Below, in pieces: positions 1 to 31,933 of a DNA stretch of 32,000 nucleotides. The stretch's first letter is position 1; every line of letters begins with the position of its first letter. The notes beneath the pieces were generated by a model. That model saw only the letters and a list, made by a program, of their open reading frames with translations, was not told where the DNA came from and made no database searches. The DNA comes from Candidatus Nanopusillus sp. GTDB taxonomy: Archaea; Nanobdellota; Nanobdellia; Nanobdellales; Nanobdellaceae. The DNA lies in the NCBI GenBank assembly GCA_028276785.1, contig JAPYVP010000004.1:1-32000 (forward strand), in the 5' to 3' direction. The position numbers were made by a program, and so were the translations under genes.

Positions 1-2268
1 TTGATTAAACGCTGTATTATATGCATTTATGTATGATTTTACAAATATTGGTTCTCCTGTTATTGTATTTTTAGATACTGGTGGGTTTGGTAGTATTGCA
101 TATGCACTTTTTCCATCCCAGCTATATCTTTCTGAAGCGAGCGAATAATTAAATATATTTCCATTCATTAAGAAAAATATATTCATATTATCATATGCTT
201 GGAACCAATTATATAACCAAAATACTCCAAATTGATAATAATTTGAATTATTTTGTTGATCTGGTGGCATAAATGGGAAATAGTCTTCTCCTTCATATCC
301 TCGTATATTTCCAGTATTATCCTCTACAAAGAAATATTTTAGTTTCCAACAAATTGGGGGAATATTCAAACAAGTGAATGAATACCATCCAGATCCTGAA
401 TAATAATAGTTCCAATACTGATTATATGAATTTGTAGCTGGATTTTTTGTATATTGTGTAGTTAAAAAATATCCTATAGTATCATTATATTGCAATATTC
501 CAACATAATAACCCGCACTATTTCCCGGTTTTGCACCCCCTGGTACCCAACCATATTCATACATAAACATTGGAAAATTAAGTGGTAAATATGTTCCTCC
601 CCCAACCCTTATTCCTATATCTTCATTTCCAGTAGAAACACACTCTCCTCCTACTGAACATACTTGATTTTTATTATGATTATAATCATTATAATTATTT
701 ACAGTATTTATTTTTAAATTACTATTATCTGCAATATATGATAATACTACTGCATGTGAAACAAAATTATTCTCATGAGGATCTAACCAAGGTATTCCAG
801 AAAAGTATGCAAATGTTTGTAATCCCAATCCATTACGTGATTTAGATAATTGATAAAATGTATTTTTTAAAATATCAGATGTAATTAATGCATAAGATCC
901 TTGATCTGTTCCATTAACCATTAATAATCCTTTAAAAGGTCTATCAATTACAATATCTATCATAGCAGTTCCATTTAAATAAACATTTACATTATTATAT
1001 GGGAGTAATATGTTATTTTGTTGAAATAATATATTATTATTTTGATAACATCTTTTATATCTACTGATATCGCAATTATCCGAAGGTATCATCTCTACCC
1101 AATATGCATTATTATCTGGATATGGATAGAAATTTACATATATTGGAAATACATTTAATCCATTATCATACATAACTGCTGAAGATGGGTTATTTGGATT
1201 TAAAGCTTCTGGAGCACCACCAATTGTTCCATTTAAATGCGGTAATAAATTCTCATCACTAAATCCAACAAATAGTGATATAATATTACAACCAAAATTA
1301 TTATTATATAATGAAGGGACATTTAATAGATTAATGAAGAAATAATAATTCCCATTATATTCTCCAGCATACCATGAAGGTAATGCATAATATTTACCTT
1401 TATAATTAAGTATAAATACTACATTATCCCCAACATATGGAGATCTTTTAATATAATTATTTAGCGGAGGACCAATTATAACTAATATATTTTGGAAATC
1501 ATCCATAACATATCCACCATTATTTGATAAAGGTATAGCTAAATATGTTCCATTAATAATTTTTACATTATTTATTGTATAATCATAATATTTAGAATTT
1601 GGATAAGAATTTCCTAATAAAGATATTGCTGGAGTTATATTTATATATAAAGGTTCATTTAAATAGAAATTTTGTATATTTTGGCCATTATTTGATTTAC
1701 ATAATATACAAAAATATACAAAATCACCTGCCCGATATCTTACACGATCATTTCCTACAATACTACATTCATATGTATTTCCATTATATGTATATTTAAC
1801 ACTATTTCCTTCAAAAGTATTATTTGATATATTAATTACGGATTCTATATCAACATTATTTAATGATTCTATACTATAAGATCTTGAACTAATATTTGTT
1901 ATATTTGGAGGATTTATTTTTAATACATTAACACTATTATTAACTCCACTATAAGTATTTGTAATATTATAATATATATTCCAATTGTCTTGATCTACAA
2001 TAAATGAAGGAACATATTGTATAATAAATCCATTTTGATAATATATACTTACCATAATTGTAGAATTTATAGTATTCAAATTATTATTATCTTGATTATT
2101 TTGGGTATTTTGATCTTGTATAGAAATATAATATTGAGATGGATTATAAATATGGTAATATTTAAATATTGAAGTTAAAATAAATATAACTCCTGCAAGA
2201 ATTATAATAAATATTGGAAGATAATATCCTATAAATAGCATAAGACTATCAAAAATTTTTCCTCTCAT
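1..2268 (-). CDS. Large N-terminally anchored or secreted Asn/Tyr-rich surface protein. Only the 5' part is present (756 codons in the window); the C-terminus lies beyond position 1.
   Basis: Absent from the ORF track because it runs off the left edge. I checked every in-frame triplet on the minus strand from 2268 to 1 and found no stop. The ATG at 2268-2266 overlaps the TGA of the upstream 62-aa ORF (ATGA). The protein starts MRGKIFDSLMLFIGYYLPIFIIILAGVIFILTSIFKYYHIYNPSQYY. It has one N-terminal hydrophobic helix followed by N/Y/G-rich polar sequence with many N-x-S/T sequons. There are 10 Cys, mostly in close pairs (FCILC, CDISRYKRC, CSVGGEC, CLNIPPIC). No family recognised. Confidence 0.75.
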   Translation of the reverse strand, partial: MRGKIFDSLMLFIGYYLPIFIIILAGVIFILTSIFKYYHIYNPSQYYISIQDQNTQNNQDNNNLNTINSTIMVSIYYQNGFIIQYVPSFIVDQDNWNIYYNITNTYSGVNNSVNVLKINPPNITNISSRSYSIESLNNVDIESVINISNNTFEGNSVKYTYNGNTYECSIVGNDRVRYRAGDFVYFCILCKSNNGQNIQNFYLNEPLYINITPAISLLGNSYPNSKYYDYTINNVKIINGTYLAIPLSNNGGYVMDDFQNILVIIGPPLNNYIKRSPYVGDNVVFILNYKGKYYALPSWYAGEYNGNYYFFINLLNVPSLYNNNFGCNIISLFVGFSDENLLPHLNGTIGGAPEALNPNNPSSAVMYDNGLNVFPIYVNFYPYPDNNAYWVEMIPSDNCDISRYKRCYQNNNILFQQNNILLPYNNVNVYLNGTAMIDIVIDRPFKGLLMVNGTDQGSYALITSDILKNTFYQLSKSRNGLGLQTFAYFSGIPWLDPHENNFVSHAVVLSYIADNSNLKINTVNNYNDYNHNKNQVCSVGGECVSTGNEDIGIRVGGGTYLPLNFPMFMYEYGWVPGGAKPGNSAGYYVGILQYNDTIGYFLTTQYTKNPATNSYNQYWNYYYSGSGWYSFTCLNIPPICWKLKYFFVEDNTGNIRGYEGEDYFPFMPPDQQNNSNYYQFGVFWLYNWFQAYDNMNIFFLMNGNIFNYSLASERYSWDGKSAYAILPNPPVSKNTITGEPIFVKSYINAYNTAFNQ

Positions 2269-2453
2269 CTTATTATATCAGGAATTGATTGATTTGTAAT
2301 ATTATTAAAACTATTATTGATGAAATTGAATGATTGATTTGATGCTGTATTTCCACCCAAAAATATTTTATAACCAAACATAACTGCTAAAACCAATATA
2401 ACCAGTGCAATAACTAAAATAATTACCATATCTATTGATATACTATTTTTCAT
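2265..2453 (-). CDS. Mini membrane or pilin-like protein (62 aa): N-terminal hydrophobic helix plus an Asn-rich, sequon-rich tail
   Basis: Track ORF MKNSISIDMVIILVIALVILVLAVMFGYKIF... with tail NQSFNFINNSFNNITNQS. Its stop overlaps the start of the large surface-protein ORF (ATGA). It has the same architecture as the ORFs at 8942 and 9218. Confidence 0.55.
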   Translation of the reverse strand: MKNSISIDMVIILVIALVILVLAVMFGYKIFLGGNTASNQSFNFINNSFNNITNQSIPDIIR

Positions 2454-2485
2454 ATATATCTAAAAAATCTCATTAATTATAAATT

Positions 2486-2926
2486 TTATTCAAAAACTTT
2501 CTTTTTATAATAATACAAAATTGTTCCAAGATTAATAATTAATATTCCATCTGCTATAAGACAATATATACATATTGAATTAATTAAAAAGAACATAGTA
2601 TATAATGAAAATATTACAAATATTATACCAATTGACCTATAAAATATATTATAAATTATTTTCAACATTTTCTTATACAACAAAAATATCAAAAATAAAT
2701 CTATTATAAAATATACAATTGCGTAAATTCCCAAAGGTATTCCAAATAACTTTGAATATGGACTATTCAATACTTTTTCACAATCAATTAATGTATTATT
2801 AACGGAACAGAAATATGGTAATGAACTACTTATCAAAACAGTATATTCCAGATATATAAATACAATTATACCTATTATTGAGAATATTGTCAATAAAAAT
2901 AATCTTTTATCAAATTTTAAGTTCAT
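2486..2926 (-). CDS. VKOR-family (vitamin K epoxide reductase-like) membrane thiol oxidoreductase
   Basis: Four predicted TM helices. The loop Cys pair and motif FCSVNNTLIDCEKVLNSPYSKLFGIPLGIYA match the VKOR pattern C..C..V..S.Y...fGiP. A CXXC (CIYC) sits at the start of the last TM helix. Confidence 0.82.
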   Translation of the reverse strand: MNLKFDKRLFLLTIFSIIGIIVFIYLEYTVLISSSLPYFCSVNNTLIDCEKVLNSPYSKLFGIPLGIYAIVYFIIDLFLIFLLYKKMLKIIYNIFYRSIGIIFVIFSLYTMFFLINSICIYCLIADGILIINLGTILYYYKKKVFE

Positions 2927-2978: not shown

Positions 2979-3536
2979 ATGGGAAAATATTACCATTTAT
3001 CATTTGAAAAAGAAGAAATTAACAAAAAAATAAAATTAGAAGATGAAGATCCATTATTTATTATTAGTTATAACCCATCAGCATATTCTTTTAGATATAC
3101 ATTTCCATTATATTTGCTTTTTTGTATATATGGTATTGTATTTTCTATTTCAACATACTATAACCCAAACATAATGTCTTTTATTTTATTATTTTTTATT
3201 ACTTCAATTTTATTCTATATTGCAATTAAATATTATGAAATAGCAAAGAATCGTTATATAATATTTACAAATAATAGATTAATATTACTTGAAAATGAAA
3301 ATATAAGGTCAATAGATAATTCATATATAAATAATATAGAAATATATCAAAGTTTATATGAGAGATCTAAAAAATTATATACAATAAAAATATATACCAG
3401 TACACTCTTATTAAATAAAAATATAAGCTTAATAATTGAATTACCATTACTTAAGAAGGAAGATATGGAAAAAATAAGAGAAATTATTCTAAATAATATA
3501 CCTAAGAAGCCTGAGCAGGCAAAACCTGTTCCTTAA
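2979..3536 (+). CDS. Membrane protein with two TM helices followed by a possible bPH/YdbT-like (DUF304-type) region
   Basis: Track ORF with hydrophobic segments FPLYLLFCIYGIVFSI and SFILLFFITSILFYIAI, then YIIFTNNRLILLEN, which resembles the bacterial PH-like membrane family. A TATA-like tttataaatttttaaata lies about 30 nt upstream. The 3' end overlaps rpl21e convergently by 35 nt. Confidence 0.45.
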   Translation: MGKYYHLSFEKEEINKKIKLEDEDPLFIISYNPSAYSFRYTFPLYLLFCIYGIVFSISTYYNPNIMSFILLFFITSILFYIAIKYYEIAKNRYIIFTNNRLILLENENIRSIDNSYINNIEIYQSLYERSKKLYTIKIYTSTLLLNKNISLIIELPLLKKEDMEKIREIILNNIPKKPEQAKPVP

Positions 3537-9458: not shown

Positions 9459-9529
9459 TGGGCCCGGGGGGATTCGAACCCCCGTCAATGGGTCTGGAGC
9501 CCACCGTCCTGCCACTAGACTACGGGCCC
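9459..9529 (-). tRNA. tRNA-Trp (anticodon CCA), intron-less, no encoded CCA end
   Basis: Hand-folded cloverleaf: GGGCCCG TA GTCT AGTGGCA GGAC G GTGGG CTCCAGA CCCAT TGAC GGGGG TTCGAAT CCCCC CGGGCCC A. It is one of only two GC-rich islands in the window. Nucleotide 1 is also the last base of the aIF-1A TAG stop codon. Confidence 0.9.
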
Positions 9530-13927: not shown

Positions 13928-14017
13928 GGGCCCGTAGCTCAGAGGTGGAGCGCCGGCCTTATAAGGCTACGCTCCTAAGAAAGCCGGAGGTCAGGGGTTC
14001 GAGTCCCCTCGGGCCCA
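13928..14017 (+). tRNA. tRNA-Ile (anticodon UAU) with an 18-nt intron at the canonical 37/38 position
   Basis: Hand-folded: GGGCCCG TA GCTC AGAGGTG GAGC G CCGGC CTTATA[intron]A GCCGG AGGTC AGGGG TTCGAGT CCCCT CGGGCCC A. The mature length is 72 nt. This is a GC-rich island, followed by an oligo-T run. Confidence 0.85.
13964..13981 (+). other. tRNA intron forming a bulge-helix-bulge splice motif
   Basis: The anticodon-loop bases CTTA (13958-13961) pair with the intron bases TAAG (13976-13979), forming a 4-bp helix. That helix is flanked by the 3-nt bulges TAA and AAA, and the symmetric cut sites give an 18-nt intron, AGGCTACGCTCCTAAGAA. Confidence 0.7.
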
Positions 14018-15429: not shown

Positions 15430-16347
15430 TCAGCTGGATACTAAAGGTTGCAATATACTATTAAATAAATTATATGGCAGAGCTCCTGAAAATACAAACA
15501 TTATATAATTATAATCCTCTGTTGTATATACTGAAGGACTTAATCCATATTGTCTTAATTGATTTAATACATTATTAACTTGTTGAACTGTTTGGAATGT
15601 AATTGAAGATGTCTTTACAACTACCATAAATGATGGAGTTCCTCCAATTCCATATGTACTACTATAATAATTTAATTCACTATTTATCTGATTATAATAT
15701 TTTGAACTATTTACACATGATTCAATTTTATTAACATCCAATCCTAAAGATTGTGCCTTTTTATTAAATTCTCTATATACATCTTGTTGACTTGGTAAAG
15801 TACTCCAAGACACTCCTTGCATTTGATTATACCAGGTCCAGTTTGAAAATTTATCCCATGTTTCAAATCCATATAATTTGTATACGCATGTTAAATATTG
15901 TGCTGTTAGATTTGCATATGGATGTATCTGATATAATGGAAAATTAACAAATACCCATGCTATCTTTCCATTGTCTATATAATTTTGTCTAATTTGTGAG
16001 AATGTTTGTAAGTGAAATAGATCACAATATGGACATTGAAAATCGGAAAATTCATATACAATAACATTTACATTATTTGGATTTCCATATACCGGATCTA
16101 TATCAGAAATATTTGGCAATGGTGCCTGTGGTAATGTTTGCAAATATGCCTGCAATTGATTTGAAGAACTACTAGATGATCCATATATTTTTATATTCGA
16201 TATTGAATTGGCTATGACATAAGATCCCATAATTACTGAGATCGCCAAAATTATAAATCCAATTATTATTGATTTCTCCACAGTAATATTAAACTTCCAT
16301 TCCTTCTTTTCATTATTTTCTTTATTTTTTTCTTTTTCTATTTCCAT
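15430..16347 (-). CDS. Membrane-anchored DsbA-like thiol:disulfide oxidoreductase (thioredoxin fold, CPYC)
   Basis: A K/E-rich N-terminus, one TM helix (IIIGFIILAISVIMGSYVI) and a Ser-rich linker, then VYEFSDFQCPYCDLFH (CxxC) and the cis-Pro motif GIGGTPSF, typical of the DsbA/Thioredoxin_4 family. A TATA (AAATATAAAT, 16370-16379) lies at -32 to -23. Confidence 0.78.
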   Translation of the reverse strand: MEIEKEKNKENNEKKEWKFNITVEKSIIIGFIILAISVIMGSYVIANSISNIKIYGSSSSSSNQLQAYLQTLPQAPLPNISDIDPVYGNPNNVNVIVYEFSDFQCPYCDLFHLQTFSQIRQNYIDNGKIAWVFVNFPLYQIHPYANLTAQYLTCVYKLYGFETWDKFSNWTWYNQMQGVSWSTLPSQQDVYREFNKKAQSLGLDVNKIESCVNSSKYYNQINSELNYYSSTYGIGGTPSFMVVVKTSSITFQTVQQVNNVLNQLRQYGLSPSVYTTEDYNYIMFVFSGALPYNLFNSILQPLVSS

Positions 16348-24637: not shown

Positions 24638-25903
24638 TTACCTTTTCAATAACCATTTCCACAGTGGTATTAATTTTATTTCTTTATTATCTTTAATTAT
24701 TCTATCTTCTAAATCCCATGTAATAATTTTTAAATCATTACAATTTAATAAATTAGATGCTTTAATTAAAGATCTAATTTCTCTTTTGTCCATTTCATCT
24801 ATATTATTTATATAAGAAACCTGGATTAATTCTTTTACTATATTATTTTCTTTTATTAAAAAATCTACTTCGTGTTGTTGATAATCTCTAAAATAGTATA
24901 TTTCAATTAGTGGATTGTTATTAATTAATCTTAACAAATCTAAATAAACCATATTTTCTATTCTTTTTCCTATATCATATTTACCAAACAAATTTGCAAA
25001 AGATACATCACATAAATAAACCTTTCTTGGCCACCTTTTTCTTTCAAAATATTTGTTAGAATATTTTTCTACAAAAAATATAGACATTGTATCTTGTATT
25101 TTATCCAAATATGAAAATATTGTATTTTTTGTATTTATATTAAATTGATTTTCTATAAATTTTTTTATTCTATTTATACTTATTTCATTAGAAAAATTTT
25201 GCATTAAATATTCAAAAATTATTTTTGCAACATTAAAGCTTCTAATTTTCCCTCTTTCTATAAAATCTTTATAAAAAATTGTTTCATAATATTCTTTAAT
25301 TATTCTTTCTTTATCTTCTATAAAAATTACTTCTGGATATCCTCCAAATTTTATATATTCCATTAAATATTCTTTTATTTTTTCTATTTCACTTATACCC
25401 AATATCTTAGAAACATTCATCTTTGTTTTTAGAAATTCTCTAAAAGAAAATGGTAATAAAATATAATATATTGTTCTACCTCTTAATTCGGTTAATAATT
25501 CTTTTGGTAATAACCTTGAGGACGAACCTGTTAAATATACATTATACCCCCTATCAATTAGCGTTCTTACTAATTTATCCCAATTTTCTAAATTTTGTAT
25601 TTCATCTAAAAATATTGTATTTATTTTTACATCATATTTAGATTCATATAAAGATATTATATTTAAAATTTCTTCTGGCTTAATATTTGAAAATTCTATA
25701 CTCTCAAAATTAATATATATTGACTTATCTTTACTTGATAAATATCTATTTAATAATAAATATGTTTTTCCTGCTCTTCTAGGGCCAACAATAGATATAG
25801 CCTTATTTTCTATATTTTTTATATTTAATTCTCTTTCAATATAATTTATTTTTCTTTCCCTTATTCTTTCAAAATATTCTATTATAAATTTTTCATCATA
25901 CAT
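24638..25903 (-). CDS. COG1373-type AAA ATPase with a C-terminal DUF4143 (PD-(D/E)xK nuclease-like) domain
   Basis: Walker A reads ISIVGPRRAGKTYLL and Walker B reads IFLDEIQ. The C-terminus YFRDYQQHEVDFLIKE is typical of DUF4143. The track ORF extends to 26008, but a palindromic TATA (tttttataaaaa, 25924-25935) lies inside that extension at -21 to -32 from the ATG at 25903 (MYDEKFIIEYF...). I therefore prefer 25903 as the start. Confidence 0.8.
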   Translation of the reverse strand: MYDEKFIIEYFERIRERKINYIERELNIKNIENKAISIVGPRRAGKTYLLLNRYLSSKDKSIYINFESIEFSNIKPEEILNIISLYESKYDVKINTIFLDEIQNLENWDKLVRTLIDRGYNVYLTGSSSRLLPKELLTELRGRTIYYILLPFSFREFLKTKMNVSKILGISEIEKIKEYLMEYIKFGGYPEVIFIEDKERIIKEYYETIFYKDFIERGKIRSFNVAKIIFEYLMQNFSNEISINRIKKFIENQFNINTKNTIFSYLDKIQDTMSIFFVEKYSNKYFERKRWPRKVYLCDVSFANLFGKYDIGKRIENMVYLDLLRLINNNPLIEIYYFRDYQQHEVDFLIKENNIVKELIQVSYINNIDEMDKREIRSLIKASNLLNCNDLKIITWDLEDRIIKDNKEIKLIPLWKWLLKR

Positions 25904-25923
25904 GTCATTATTATTATACCAAA

Positions 25924-25935
25924 TTTTTATAAAAA
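25924..25935 (-). promoter_or_regulatory. TATA box for the COG1373 ATPase gene
   Basis: tttttataaaaa lies at -21 to -32 from ATG 25903, inside the upstream extension called by the ORF track. Confidence 0.5.
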
Positions 25936-26028
25936 TTGTATAGTTACTATACCAAATATTCAAGATTTTGTCATATATATAAAACAATATCAACAGATTT
26001 TGTTTCATGAATTATAACAAATTACATA

Positions 26029-26439
26029 TCATAGTTCCAAAACTTTTATACTATATTTTTTAGCTATTTTTTTCAAATCTTCATCATAAGTAATAAATGA
26101 ACAATTTAATCTTTTAACAATTGATAATAAAATAAAATCATTTAAATTACTTTTACTTAATTTTTTATTATTTTCCTTTATCATCTTTAAAGCTTCCTTA
26201 ACATCTTTAATTTTTATGCTTTCTATTTCAAATAATTCTAAGTTATTTATTACTCTATAAATAGTATCAATATCATCCACATATTCTATTAAAACCCCTA
26301 GAAATTCATAAATAACCACTTCTGGCAATATAATATCATAACTCGTTAATATATCTAGACTTTTTTGATGATCTTCATAATCCTCAAATGTAGCCCTAAC
26401 TAGAACATTTGTATCAACAACTATTCTTTCTTTTTCCAT
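26029..26439 (-). CDS. vapC: PIN-domain toxin (VapC)
   Basis: RIVVDTNVLVRA is the N-terminal acidic PIN motif, with further acidic residues spaced as in PIN domains. There is a 19-nt overlap with the upstream antitoxin gene. Confidence 0.85.
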   Translation of the reverse strand: MEKERIVVDTNVLVRATFEDYEDHQKSLDILTSYDIILPEVVIYEFLGVLIEYVDDIDTIYRVINNLELFEIESIKIKDVKEALKMIKENNKKLSKSNLNDFILLSIVKRLNCSFITYDEDLKKIAKKYSIKVLEL

Positions 26440-30922: not shown

Positions 30923-31933
30923 ATGATAAATTATTTTGAACTGAAGAAATGGTATAATGACAATGCCGAAAAAATAAATAATTCAATAGTAAAAAACATA
31001 TATAATATTGAAGATGGGGTTGTTTTTGAATTATATAAACCAGGTTTAGAAAATAAATTTTTATACATAATCCCAGGAAAAATTATTTTTCTATATAATG
31101 TTAAAGAAAGAGAAGAAATAAATAAATTTACACTAAAATTAAGGAAAGATTTTAATGAGACAAAGATAAATATTGAAATTGATAATAATGATAAAATTAT
31201 TATAATAAAAAATAATGAAAAAAAATTATATATAGAGCTTTTTCCAAATGGGTTATTAATTGTAACTGATTATAATGATACAATTCTATATGCAAATCAA
31301 TATAAAAATTTTGGAGTAAGAAAAATATTTAGAAATGAAAAATATATAAAGCCACCAGGTTCTGTAAATATTATAAATAATATAAATGAATTTTTTGAAA
31401 AGGTAAATAATACAAATAAAAAAGATGTTGTAAGATTTTTAGCAATAGATTTGTCATTGGGGGGAAAGTATTCTGAATACATAATAAAAAAAGCAAATAT
31501 TGAAAAAAACAAAAGTCCAAAAGAATTAAATAAAGAAGAAATAGAAAAAATATATAACATTTATAATGATATAGTAAAATTAAAAATCATAATAGATGAA
31601 AATGGAAATATTATCGAAGATATTAATAAATATTTCATAAATCTTTATTTAAATAGTAGAGAAAATAAAAGAATTAGGAAATTAAATGAAGAAAAAGAAA
31701 AAATAAAAAGAATAATAGAAGAGCAAAAAAAATATTTGGAGGAAATTAATAATGAAATTTATAAATTAGAGAAAATTGGTGAATTTTTAAACATATATTC
31801 CTGGATATTTAAGGACTATGACGTAAATAATATAATAAAAAATTTTAGAGAAATTAATATTGATATAGATATTAAAATGGATAATAGATATTTAATTATT
31901 AATATAGATGATAAATATTTAGAGAATAAATAA
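30923..31933 (+). CDS. NFACT-family (RqcH/NEMF/FbpA-like) protein, short form: NFACT-N, HhH and coiled coil only
   Basis: FTLKLRKDFNETKINIEIDNNDKIIIIKNNEKKLYIELFPNGLLIVTDYNDTILYANQYKNFGVRKIFRNEKYIKPPG follows the NFACT-N pattern (F...LRK.l.g..i..i.q...DRi......y.L..El...GN.il.d....il......R.i..g..Y..PP). An HhH-like FLAIDLSLGGKYSEYIIKKANI and a K/E coiled coil follow. No NFACT-R/C region is present within the 336 aa. Confidence 0.55.
   Translation: MINYFELKKWYNDNAEKINNSIVKNIYNIEDGVVFELYKPGLENKFLYIIPGKIIFLYNVKEREEINKFTLKLRKDFNETKINIEIDNNDKIIIIKNNEKKLYIELFPNGLLIVTDYNDTILYANQYKNFGVRKIFRNEKYIKPPGSVNIINNINEFFEKVNNTNKKDVVRFLAIDLSLGGKYSEYIIKKANIEKNKSPKELNKEEIEKIYNIYNDIVKLKIIIDENGNIIEDINKYFINLYLNSRENKRIRKLNEEKEKIKRIIEEQKKYLEEINNEIYKLEKIGEFLNIYSWIFKDYDVNNIIKNFREINIDIDIKMDNRYLIINIDDKYLENK

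Follow-up and report, generated by a model that had tools for sequence, protein, structure and literature searches.

We analyzed a 32,000-nt stretch of Candidatus Nanopusillus sp. DNA (contig JAPYVP010000004.1, positions 1 to 32,000; hereafter the window), and the subject of this study is three co-oriented genes at its left edge, which encode a VKOR-family membrane thiol oxidase, a 62-amino-acid (aa) protein (the small protein), and a much larger protein whose gene runs past the window edge (the large protein). The small and large genes form a real pair that is tightly coupled everywhere we examined it. On balance, and by a modest degree, we lean toward the explanation that the large protein is a surface protein that is exported, anchored by a helix, glycosylated, braced by disulfides, and diversifying rapidly. 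In this explanation it is made together with the small protein, the pair heads a cluster of pilin-like surface-assembly genes, and a general VKOR/DsbA pathway carries out the oxidation. The most likely reading of the locus is thus an adhesin complex that is helix-anchored and diversifying, and a role of the large protein in host contact is plausible. We infer the localization, the glycosylation, the disulfide formation, the association between the two proteins, and the role as an adhesin from the features described below.

Coding capacity and predicted surface character of the large protein

The window had about 24% G+C, and its genes were closest to Candidatus Nanopusillus (Nanoarchaeota/Nanobdellota). 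The initial annotation of this DNA had described a large frame that stays open to the window edge, and this was borne out: the minus-strand frame from position 2268 to position 1 comprised 756 codons without a stop, and the chance of such a frame at the local base composition was about 1e-31. The complete gene, whose recovery the annotation had recommended, was obtained from contig L001 (related loci carry L numbers here), which was 100% identical to the window over 2271 nt, and its 851-aa product (P0001) was 100% identical to the window part of the protein. The large protein was 100% identical to a protein deposited as “Nanopusillus sp.”

The database contained 46 homologs of the large protein, all of them nanoarchaeal, and the family was limited to Nanopusillaceae, Nanobdella, and strain YN1. 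Its orthologs were Nps_00210 in N. acidilobi, Nst1_036 in Nanobsidianus stetteri, MJ1_0040 in Nanobdella aerobiophila, and YN1_3820 in strain YN1. Scanning the large protein, the small protein, and eight diverse homologs with Pfam and NCBIfam gave nothing meaningful, and a large-protein profile had zero matches among PDB sequences. When the profile was run against 1.84 billion representative proteins, it recovered only its own family, mostly as fragments, together with a distant full-length lineage (P0122/P0165). The earlier view that the protein belongs to no recognizable family was right in that the protein is uncharacterized, but the N. acidilobi ortholog is filed under arCOG10265 as “uncharacterized conserved protein, 1 TM” (transmembrane; PMC4935971, supplement file 2).

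The large protein contained a single hydrophobic segment (residues 4–40), and its residues 1–50 were the best-conserved block of 50 residues (0.86), while blocks 401–450, 501–550, and 601–650 were the least conserved in the window part. Asn (14.7%) and Tyr (10.5%) were abundant, and Lys + Arg made up only 4.7%, versus 13–23% in the cytoplasmic proteins of the window; among the window proteins compared, only the exported DsbA-like protein had a similar composition. The ten cysteines and the single N-terminal hydrophobic segment of the window part agreed with the initial annotation, but the cysteine spacings did not, as the loops read there as x2, x8, x6, and x7 were in fact C187/C190 (C-x2-C), C399/C407 (C-x7-C), C537/C543 (C-x5-C), and C633/C640 (C-x6-C), with C168 and C327 isolated. 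Alignment of 26 full-length homologs (37–83% identical by BLASTP) indicated that C168, C187, C190, and C327 were invariant in all 26 and that C399/C407 were kept in 24, while C537/C543 and C633/C640 varied. Other cysteines were gained or lost across the homologs as close pairs, and the cysteine count was even in 22 of the 26.

The sequons N149, N239, and N346 were invariant among the same homologs, and N68, N101, N210, N432, and N595 were retained in at least 21 of them. Sequon density was about fourfold that of the cytoplasmic proteins of the window, and the sequon count was not above the expectation from the protein's own composition (shuffles 14.2 ± 3.3, p = 0.24); “dozens of sequons” was an overstatement, since the window part has 15 and the complete 851-aa protein 17. 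N. acidilobi cells were reported to bind wheat-germ agglutinin (PMC4935971). Because of these helix, cysteine, sequon, and composition features, namely the single helix, the invariant and evenly numbered cysteines, the kept sequons, and the low Lys + Arg content, the data support the reading of the large protein as a predicted extracellular, disulfide-stabilized, N-terminally anchored glycoprotein with an exported ectodomain.

The small protein and its coupling to the large gene

The 62-aa open reading frame (ORF), with one hydrophobic segment and an Asn-rich tail, was as previously described. We found 69 homologs, nearly all exactly 62 aa long, and the helix and the sequons were conserved in six lineages (four tail sequons in the window copy, three to four in the orthologs). 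The ratio of nonsynonymous to synonymous substitution rates (dN/dS) was 0.12–0.18, which means strong purifying selection.

The stop of the small gene and the start of the large gene overlapped in an ATGA, and we read this overlap directly in the window, L002, L003, L004, L005, and L008. For L011–L015, the large-protein match started at the base that ended the small-protein match, and the gene called next in L021 and L023 began four bases before the end of the small gene. Thus the overlap, from which translational coupling had been proposed, was retained in every relative examined.

VKOR and the question of a dedicated oxidase

The third gene was confirmed as VKOR type, as its 146-aa product matched PF07884 with 69.5 bits (cut-off 27.5; E = 4.2e-19) over profile positions 2–128 of 134; the NCBIfam VKOR models matched it below their equivalog cut-offs. 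C40, C49, S55/S58, and C119-I-Y-C122 were invariant in seven orthologs, down to 39% identity, and the N. acidilobi VKOR is annotated with four transmembrane helices (PMC4935971).

The three-gene order, whose conservation had been proposed as a check, recurred from Nanopusillus to YN1: we found it in the window, two Nanopusillus metagenome-assembled genomes, Nst1, a second N. stetteri single-cell genome, N. acidilobi 7A, several metagenome contigs, and YN1. The spacer between the VKOR and small genes was 32–35 bp across these loci, even though the large protein of YN1 was only 38% identical. This constant adjacency, orientation, and spacing, together with the conserved cysteines of the large protein, is what speaks for the model of the initial annotation, in which VKOR is a dedicated oxidase, the adjacent large protein is its private substrate, and the three genes are a self-contained module. 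However, the upstream genes were equally collinear (those for the 185-aa membrane protein, L21e, Rpo4, DUF655, fibrillarin, and others), so adjacency alone is no sign of a functional VKOR/large-protein pair. Moreover, VKOR was a pseudogene with several in-frame stops in the Nanopusillus strain L003 (5468-5816; JGI sample 3300036468) and was deleted from the locus in N. aerobiophila MJ1 (L005:5753-5822). The genes flanking the lost VKOR were intact in both, and so were the large proteins, which kept 14 and 12 cysteines, respectively. A scan of species-representative genomes, which detects close relatives only, found no second close VKOR, and no VKOR was present near the distant homolog in L006. 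Paired cysteines were also found in many other exported proteins of the downstream cluster, which mostly had even cysteine counts. We therefore regard a dedicated pairing as improbable.

A further point against the dedicated pair is a membrane-anchored DsbA-like protein encoded 12.5 kb away, which matched PF13462 (E = 2e-17) and PF01323, carried a hydrophobic segment at residues 19–50 and a CPYC motif at residue 105, and had the composition of an exported protein. Its gene adjoins that of EF-1alpha; a Thioredoxin_4-family gene also adjoins EF-1alpha in the distant lineage L006. Characterized VKOR enzymes act through a thioredoxin-fold partner. The CPYC protein is likely the direct oxidant recycled by VKOR, and the ordinary reading is a general export-oxidation pathway, in which VKOR would reoxidize the DsbA-like protein and the latter would oxidize exported proteins. 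Because terrestrial Nanoarchaeota were reported to lack quinone synthesis (PMC6142677), we infer that the electron acceptor of VKOR, a quinone, comes from the host.

Rapid evolution of the large gene

The large gene was the fastest-evolving gene locally. Identity of its product was 83, 76, 63, 37, and 38% across relatives, compared with 91–98% for the housekeeping neighbors in three close relatives. Its dN values were 0.086 and 0.213 versus 0.008–0.05 for the housekeeping neighbors, which is 4- to 10-fold that of most neighbors, and its dN/dS was 0.34–0.56. Hypothetical surface proteins with an N-terminal transmembrane segment were reported to have the highest density of nonsynonymous single-nucleotide polymorphisms in Nanoarchaeota (PMC6142677), and the fast evolution of the large gene fits a host-contact role.

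Five independent assemblies (L019–L023), which had an identical small gene, ended 48–200 bp into the large gene, and in L001 the sequence upstream of an identical large gene switched to unrelated DNA three bases before the ATG (L001:6680-6687). L001 could represent a second genomic context of the large gene, but we take it as a probable assembly chimera, given that the other five assemblies stop at this same place. The contig ends and the L001 junction we read as strain heterogeneity that breaks or mis-joins assemblies at the large gene. The upstream DNA of L001 encoded proteins with Tat-like RRDFLK signals; N. aerobiophila was reported to have the Sec system only.

Predicted fold of the large protein

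A first structure model from a 26-sequence alignment had a predicted local distance difference test (pLDDT) score of 55, and its Foldseek search of the PDB was uninformative. An AlphaFold model with 124 sequences reached a pLDDT of 72.6 and a predicted template-modeling score (pTM) of 0.72, and it showed an N-terminal helix, a disordered Asn/Gln-rich linker (residues 37–63), and then beta-rich domains. In the fold search that the initial annotation had recommended, the best match among viral models was the DUF2341 protein A0A3Q8Q3Y8 of Sulfolobales Beppu rod-shaped virus 1 (SBRV1; E = 1.7e-5, probability 1.00). Further viral matches were the LamG-containing ORF1341 of Acidianus filamentous virus 8 (AFV8; E = 1.5e-3) and a ConA-like protein, with the SBRV1 protein and ORF1341 ranking best and third best. 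ORF1341 carries Laminin_G_3 and a weak DUF2341 match below the Pfam cut-off.

Several results weigh against the reading that we favor, and the first group of them concerns this fold. The TM-score of the SBRV1 match was low (0.24/0.34), and the Foldseek search of the PDB gave nothing convincing, its top hit being a Gram-positive basal pilin with TM-scores of 0.09/0.16. Alignment of the large-protein family to AFV8 ORF1341 by hhalign gave a probability of 0.3%, tblastn of the large protein against phage and archaeal-virus genomes gave zero matches, and the window protein and eight diverse homologs had no PF10102, PF13385, or PF02210 matches even at E ≤ 10. Because confirmation at the sequence level failed, we take a lectin-like jelly roll for the modeled ectodomain as a lead and not as a result.

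The second group concerns the gene itself. The large gene had a 4-nt deletion at codon 224 in L010 (6240-8815), and in L009 (5640-8237) it had a 1-nt deletion near codon 133 and had lost its start. The L009 copy also lay in a different context, beside a transposase fragment, a restriction-enzyme (Mrr) gene, and an ABC-transporter ATPase gene; the L009 contig was deposited under “Stygiolobus sp.” and is probably symbiont DNA within a host assembly. About 9 of the 46 database homologs started at the internal Met255. Some copies of the large gene are thus inactivated, or mis-sequenced, and the gene may be dispensable or switched off in some strains. The distant relative P0122/P0165 (705–730 aa; L006:8001-10118) kept a CILC motif and the conserved C-terminal strands, but it stood alone, without small gene, VKOR, or cluster. 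It was flanked by FBPase and L12 genes on one side and by MCM on the other; FBPase and L12 sit just past the cluster in N. acidilobi. Finally, the block Nps_00195–Nps_00255 had no values in the N. acidilobi proteome, which for the large protein could be explained by few tryptic sites. This absence argues weakly against very high abundance, as few tryptic sites and glycosylation hinder detection.

Taken further, the interrupted L009 and L010 copies, the Met255 starts, the raised dN/dS, and the lack of proteome detection could mean that the gene is decaying or dispensable and that its features survive from a surface protein of an ancestor. But the gene was intact and full length in all complete or near-complete genomes checked (the window part, L002, L003, L004, L005, L008, L013, and L015). 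Furthermore, its dN/dS was below 1, its cysteines, sequons, and N-terminal helix were invariant across genera, and a 2.5-kb open frame cannot persist by chance at 24% GC. We consider this reading extremely unlikely.

The S-layer question

The initial annotation had proposed an S-layer, adhesin, or host-contact component, and the S-layer part did not hold. In favor of an S-layer or other bulk envelope role, the protein is large, predicted to be glycosylated, and modeled as beta-rich, and it has few tryptic sites, a property that was invoked for the absence of the predicted S-layer protein from the N. acidilobi proteome. However, the S-layer genes proposed so far are other genes, namely MJ1_0160 and MJ1_0707 in N. 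aerobiophila, YN1_5000 and YN1_2560 in YN1, and Nps_00760 in N. acidilobi (predicted S-layer/cell-surface gene; PMC4935971). Locus-tag mapping, by which the ortholog here is Nps_00210 and not Nps_00760, led us to reject an S-layer identity. The top-expressed candidate of N. aerobiophila was MJ1_0160 and the proposed anchor was MJ1_0707, both with orthologs in YN1, and MJ1_0040 was unmentioned there. The anchor candidates of that study have a C-terminal transmembrane helix, whereas the large protein has an N-terminal anchor, its gene is frameshifted in some strains, and its family profile matched its own lineage only. A bulk envelope role is thus very improbable. Host contact, another part of the proposal, fits the rapid diversification of the large protein and is a plausible function for it.

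A wider cluster of helix-headed genes and the type IV pilin question

In L002, L004, L005, and L008, the large gene was followed by one opposite-strand gene and then by tightly packed co-oriented genes, which would lie to the left of the window (L002:9811-14556, L004:11269-14610, L005:9433-14373, and L008:11480-18184). The YN1 contig reached nine cluster genes, with products of approximately 423, 43, 63, 49, 304, 386, 301, 160, and 487 aa. All of the cluster genes encoded a polar leader of 2–6 residues and an N-terminal hydrophobic helix of 22–30 residues and had no Pfam matches, and because all members share this format, the block looks like a pilin-type assembly. Canonical class III motifs were found in some cluster orthologs (MKKG/V, HKG/Q, KKG/Q, KRG/S, MRA/L, and MRG/D; the slash separates positions −1 and +1). 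The leader of the small protein was MKN/S or MRN/D, without Gly or Ala at −1, and that of the large protein was MRG/K in Nanopusillus and MKT/Q and MKS/D in MJ1 and YN1.

In profile searches at E ≤ 10, neither the cluster proteins nor their isolated N-termini matched a type IV pilin or class III signal family, and the matches were to generic transmembrane segments; one further sub-threshold match (E = 0.095) was between an internal segment of a 378-aa MJ1 protein and a pilin-like conjugal-transfer family. ATPase, platform, and prepilin peptidase genes were absent from the window and from every fetched locus. The earlier description of the small protein as pilin-like thus stood for its 3-residue leader, long helix, sequon-bearing tail, and similar gene block, but it lacked a pilin profile match and had Asn at −1.

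These genes could form a true type IV filament operon, in which the 43–63-aa proteins would be small glycosylated pilins and the large protein a pilin-headed or pilus-tip adhesin of the DUF2341/PilY type, all processed by a prepilin peptidase and assembled by a nanoarchaeal type IV pilus ATPase/platform pair encoded elsewhere. In 2016, nanoarchaeal type IV pilus ATPases were reported without identified cognate pilins, which such an operon would supply, and DUF2341 proteins of archaeal type IV pilus loci were put forward by Makarova et al. as adhesins of the pilus tip (PMC4858521). There are precedents in M. maripaludis, whose major pilin is 62 aa when mature and glycosylated and whose 11-gene pilin operon lacks ATPase and platform genes (PMC3875500), and whose epd pilus genes include one for a large DUF2341 protein (PMC10133366). 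In addition, 11–12 consecutive genes share the leader and helix format, with several canonical motifs including the MRG/K of the large protein, and in many cluster proteins an acidic residue occurs near the start of the helix. As in pilins, conservation of the large protein is highest in its N-terminal helix, and its top fold match is a DUF2341 protein.

On the other side stand the zero profile matches and the missing machinery genes described above, and no prepilin peptidase was found in two nanoarchaea (PMC4858521). By eye, most N-termini were off the published [KRDE][GA] cleavage pattern (window genes K-N/S and R-G/K), many −1 residues were Asn, Ser, or Thr, and the leader motif of the large protein was not kept in MJ1 or YN1. 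Also, arCOG10265 and arCOG10353 are not in the type IV pilus supplementary files of PMC4858521 that were searched, and a 27-residue disordered linker lies between helix and head. Formation of a true type IV filament by the cluster is possible, although we see the balance as tilted against it, and the operon as detailed above, with its assignment of pilins and tip adhesin, appears rather unlikely. More doubtful still is the proposal that the pair and the nine to ten following genes are a non-canonical type IV filament-like apparatus specific to Nanopusillaceae and Nanobdellaceae, with tiny glycosylated pilins and a lectin-like, rapidly diversifying adhesin, which supplies the “missing” pilins of the ATPases. 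If true, this apparatus could correspond to one of the host-contact structures that cryo-tomography revealed in N. aerobiophila, YN1, and YN4: the attachment-organelle cone, the filament between cells, or the “second appendage” of 15 nm.

Other features of the window

The coordinates of the locus are collected in Table 1. The remaining genes of the window were housekeeping genes, encoding L21e, Rpo4, fibrillarin, Nop5, S10, ArgRS, eIF1A, MCM, EF1A, a class I tRNA synthetase, TBP, a proteasome subunit, an FttA-like (beta-CASP/KH) RNase, and a topoisomerase. Divergent from VKOR, a gene at 2979-3536 (+) encoded a conserved 185-aa membrane protein with a weak match to a bacterial PH domain; it was present in all related loci (Nps_00195, annotated with two transmembrane helices), and its 3′ end overlapped the convergent L21e gene by 35 bases (3502-3536). 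A tRNA-Trp at 9459-9529 (−) abutted the start of the eIF1A gene, and a 90-nt tRNA at 13928-14017 (+), with 64 bits to the Rfam tRNA model and no anticodon called by ARAGORN, probably contains an intron. An AAA_14/DUF4143 ATPase gene and a PIN-domain gene were located at 24638-26439 (−). AAA_14/DUF4143 genes also break synteny upstream of the cluster in YN1 (L008), and because of this interruption they may be mobile or defense related. The ORF at 30923-31933 (+) encoded 336 aa, of which Asn made up 14.9%, a share like that in the large protein, and its sole match was a weak, sub-threshold one to ribosomal protein S13.

Table 1 Features of the left-edge locus and of the DsbA-like gene in the window
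Feature	Coordinates	Strand	Basis
Large surface protein (putative), first 756 of 851 codons	1..2268	−	Open frame; full length from P0001/L001
Variable portion of ectodomain, short cysteine loops C399/C407, C537/C543, C633/C640	349..1074	−	Cysteine columns; low-conservation blocks
Invariant-cysteine region: C168, C187-x2-C190, C327	1288..1767	−	26/26 full-length homologs
Asn/Gln-rich low-complexity linker from helix to globular part, residues 37–63	2080..2160	−	pLDDT <50 at residues 35–63 in both models
N-terminal hydrophobic helix, residues 4–36; membrane anchor or pilin-like helix	2161..2259	−	Only hydrophobic segment; AlphaFold helix
ATGA overlap of small-gene stop and large-gene start	2265..2268	−	Read in sequence
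62-aa single-helix protein; possible large-protein partner or pilin-like subunit	2265..2453	−	ORF; homologs
VKOR-family membrane thiol oxidase	2486..2926	−	PF07884; C40 (2807-2809), C49 (2780-2782), C119-x-x-C122 (2561-2572)
Membrane-anchored DsbA-like thioredoxin-fold protein, CPYC (16024-16035)	15430..16347	−	PF13462, PF01323

Proposed model and its meaning

In the model of an anchored, diversifying adhesin complex, VKOR, the 62-aa gene, and the large gene would be a single transcription unit. The 851-aa product would be exported and held at the cell by its highly conserved N-terminal helix, which would be followed by the flexible Asn/Gln-rich linker and a beta-rich, probably lectin-like ectodomain. 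This ectodomain would carry N-glycans at about eight conserved sites, with two conserved disulfides and short, lineage-variable disulfide loops as braces. The ATGA overlap would let the 62-aa single-helix glycopeptide be made in step with the large protein, against whose helix it most likely packs. The pair would head a block of nine to ten further helix-headed genes resembling a pilin-type surface assembly, and the quick diversification of the ectodomain would fit host contact or adhesion on Sulfolobales/Desulfurococcales hosts. VKOR would be a general DsbB-type enzyme that passes electrons from the DsbA-like CPYC protein to a quinone, presumably taken from the host, and would serve all exported cysteine-bearing proteins.

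Cryo-tomography papers from 2024 and 2026 described an attachment organelle and extra appendages, whose constituent proteins were unassigned according to the 2024 papers, and the cluster is a reasonable but unproven candidate for their source. The locus thus gives a short candidate list for host recognition and attachment in DPANN/Nanobdellota, and it is conserved in the cultivated N. acidilobi, N. aerobiophila, and YN1. VKOR as part of a probably ordinary VKOR/DsbA export-oxidation route, with the VKOR gene lost in some relatives, bears on how disulfides are made at pH 3 and 80 °C by cells reported to make no quinones. Even if the large protein is an ordinary anchored glycoprotein, the analysis corrects the “dedicated oxidase” and S-layer readings.

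Comparison with known systems

Compared with VKOR/DsbA-type pathways, the window VKOR keeps the loop cysteines, the Ser, and the CXXC, and a CPYC DsbA-like protein is encoded in the same window, but this VKOR has no fused thioredoxin domain and its gene was lost in two related lineages.

For the cluster, the closest likeness is to the Epd-type (system 1) pilus of M. maripaludis. Both have many proteins with an N-terminal helix and no ATPase or platform gene in cis, both include glycosylatable subunits of about 60 aa, and both include one large protein, which in the window has only DUF2341/LamG lectin-like proteins as fold relatives. The window proteins differ in lacking a pilin N-terminus or DUF2341 profile match, the nanoarchaeal leaders have 2–6 residues, often without Gly/Ala at −1 and without conserved +1 Gln/+5 Glu, and the nanoarchaeal cluster has no peptidase gene.

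BasEF-type surface systems tether large globular proteins by a pilin-like helix and a flexible linker, with small helix-only proteins alongside. Mention of such a system is made in PMC4858521. The nanoarchaeal locus likewise combines a helix-and-linker tether on large proteins with small helix-only proteins encoded beside them, but its cluster encodes neither a solute-binding-protein fold nor an ABC transporter, genes like those for the BasEF ATPase and membrane proteins are missing from its surroundings, and no homology was detected.

The last comparison is with the DUF2341/LamG proteins of SBRV1 and AFV8. These viral proteins lack the N-terminal helix format, and their own attachment role is putative, but the viruses and the nanoarchaea share one task, as both must bind the surface of a crenarchaeal host.

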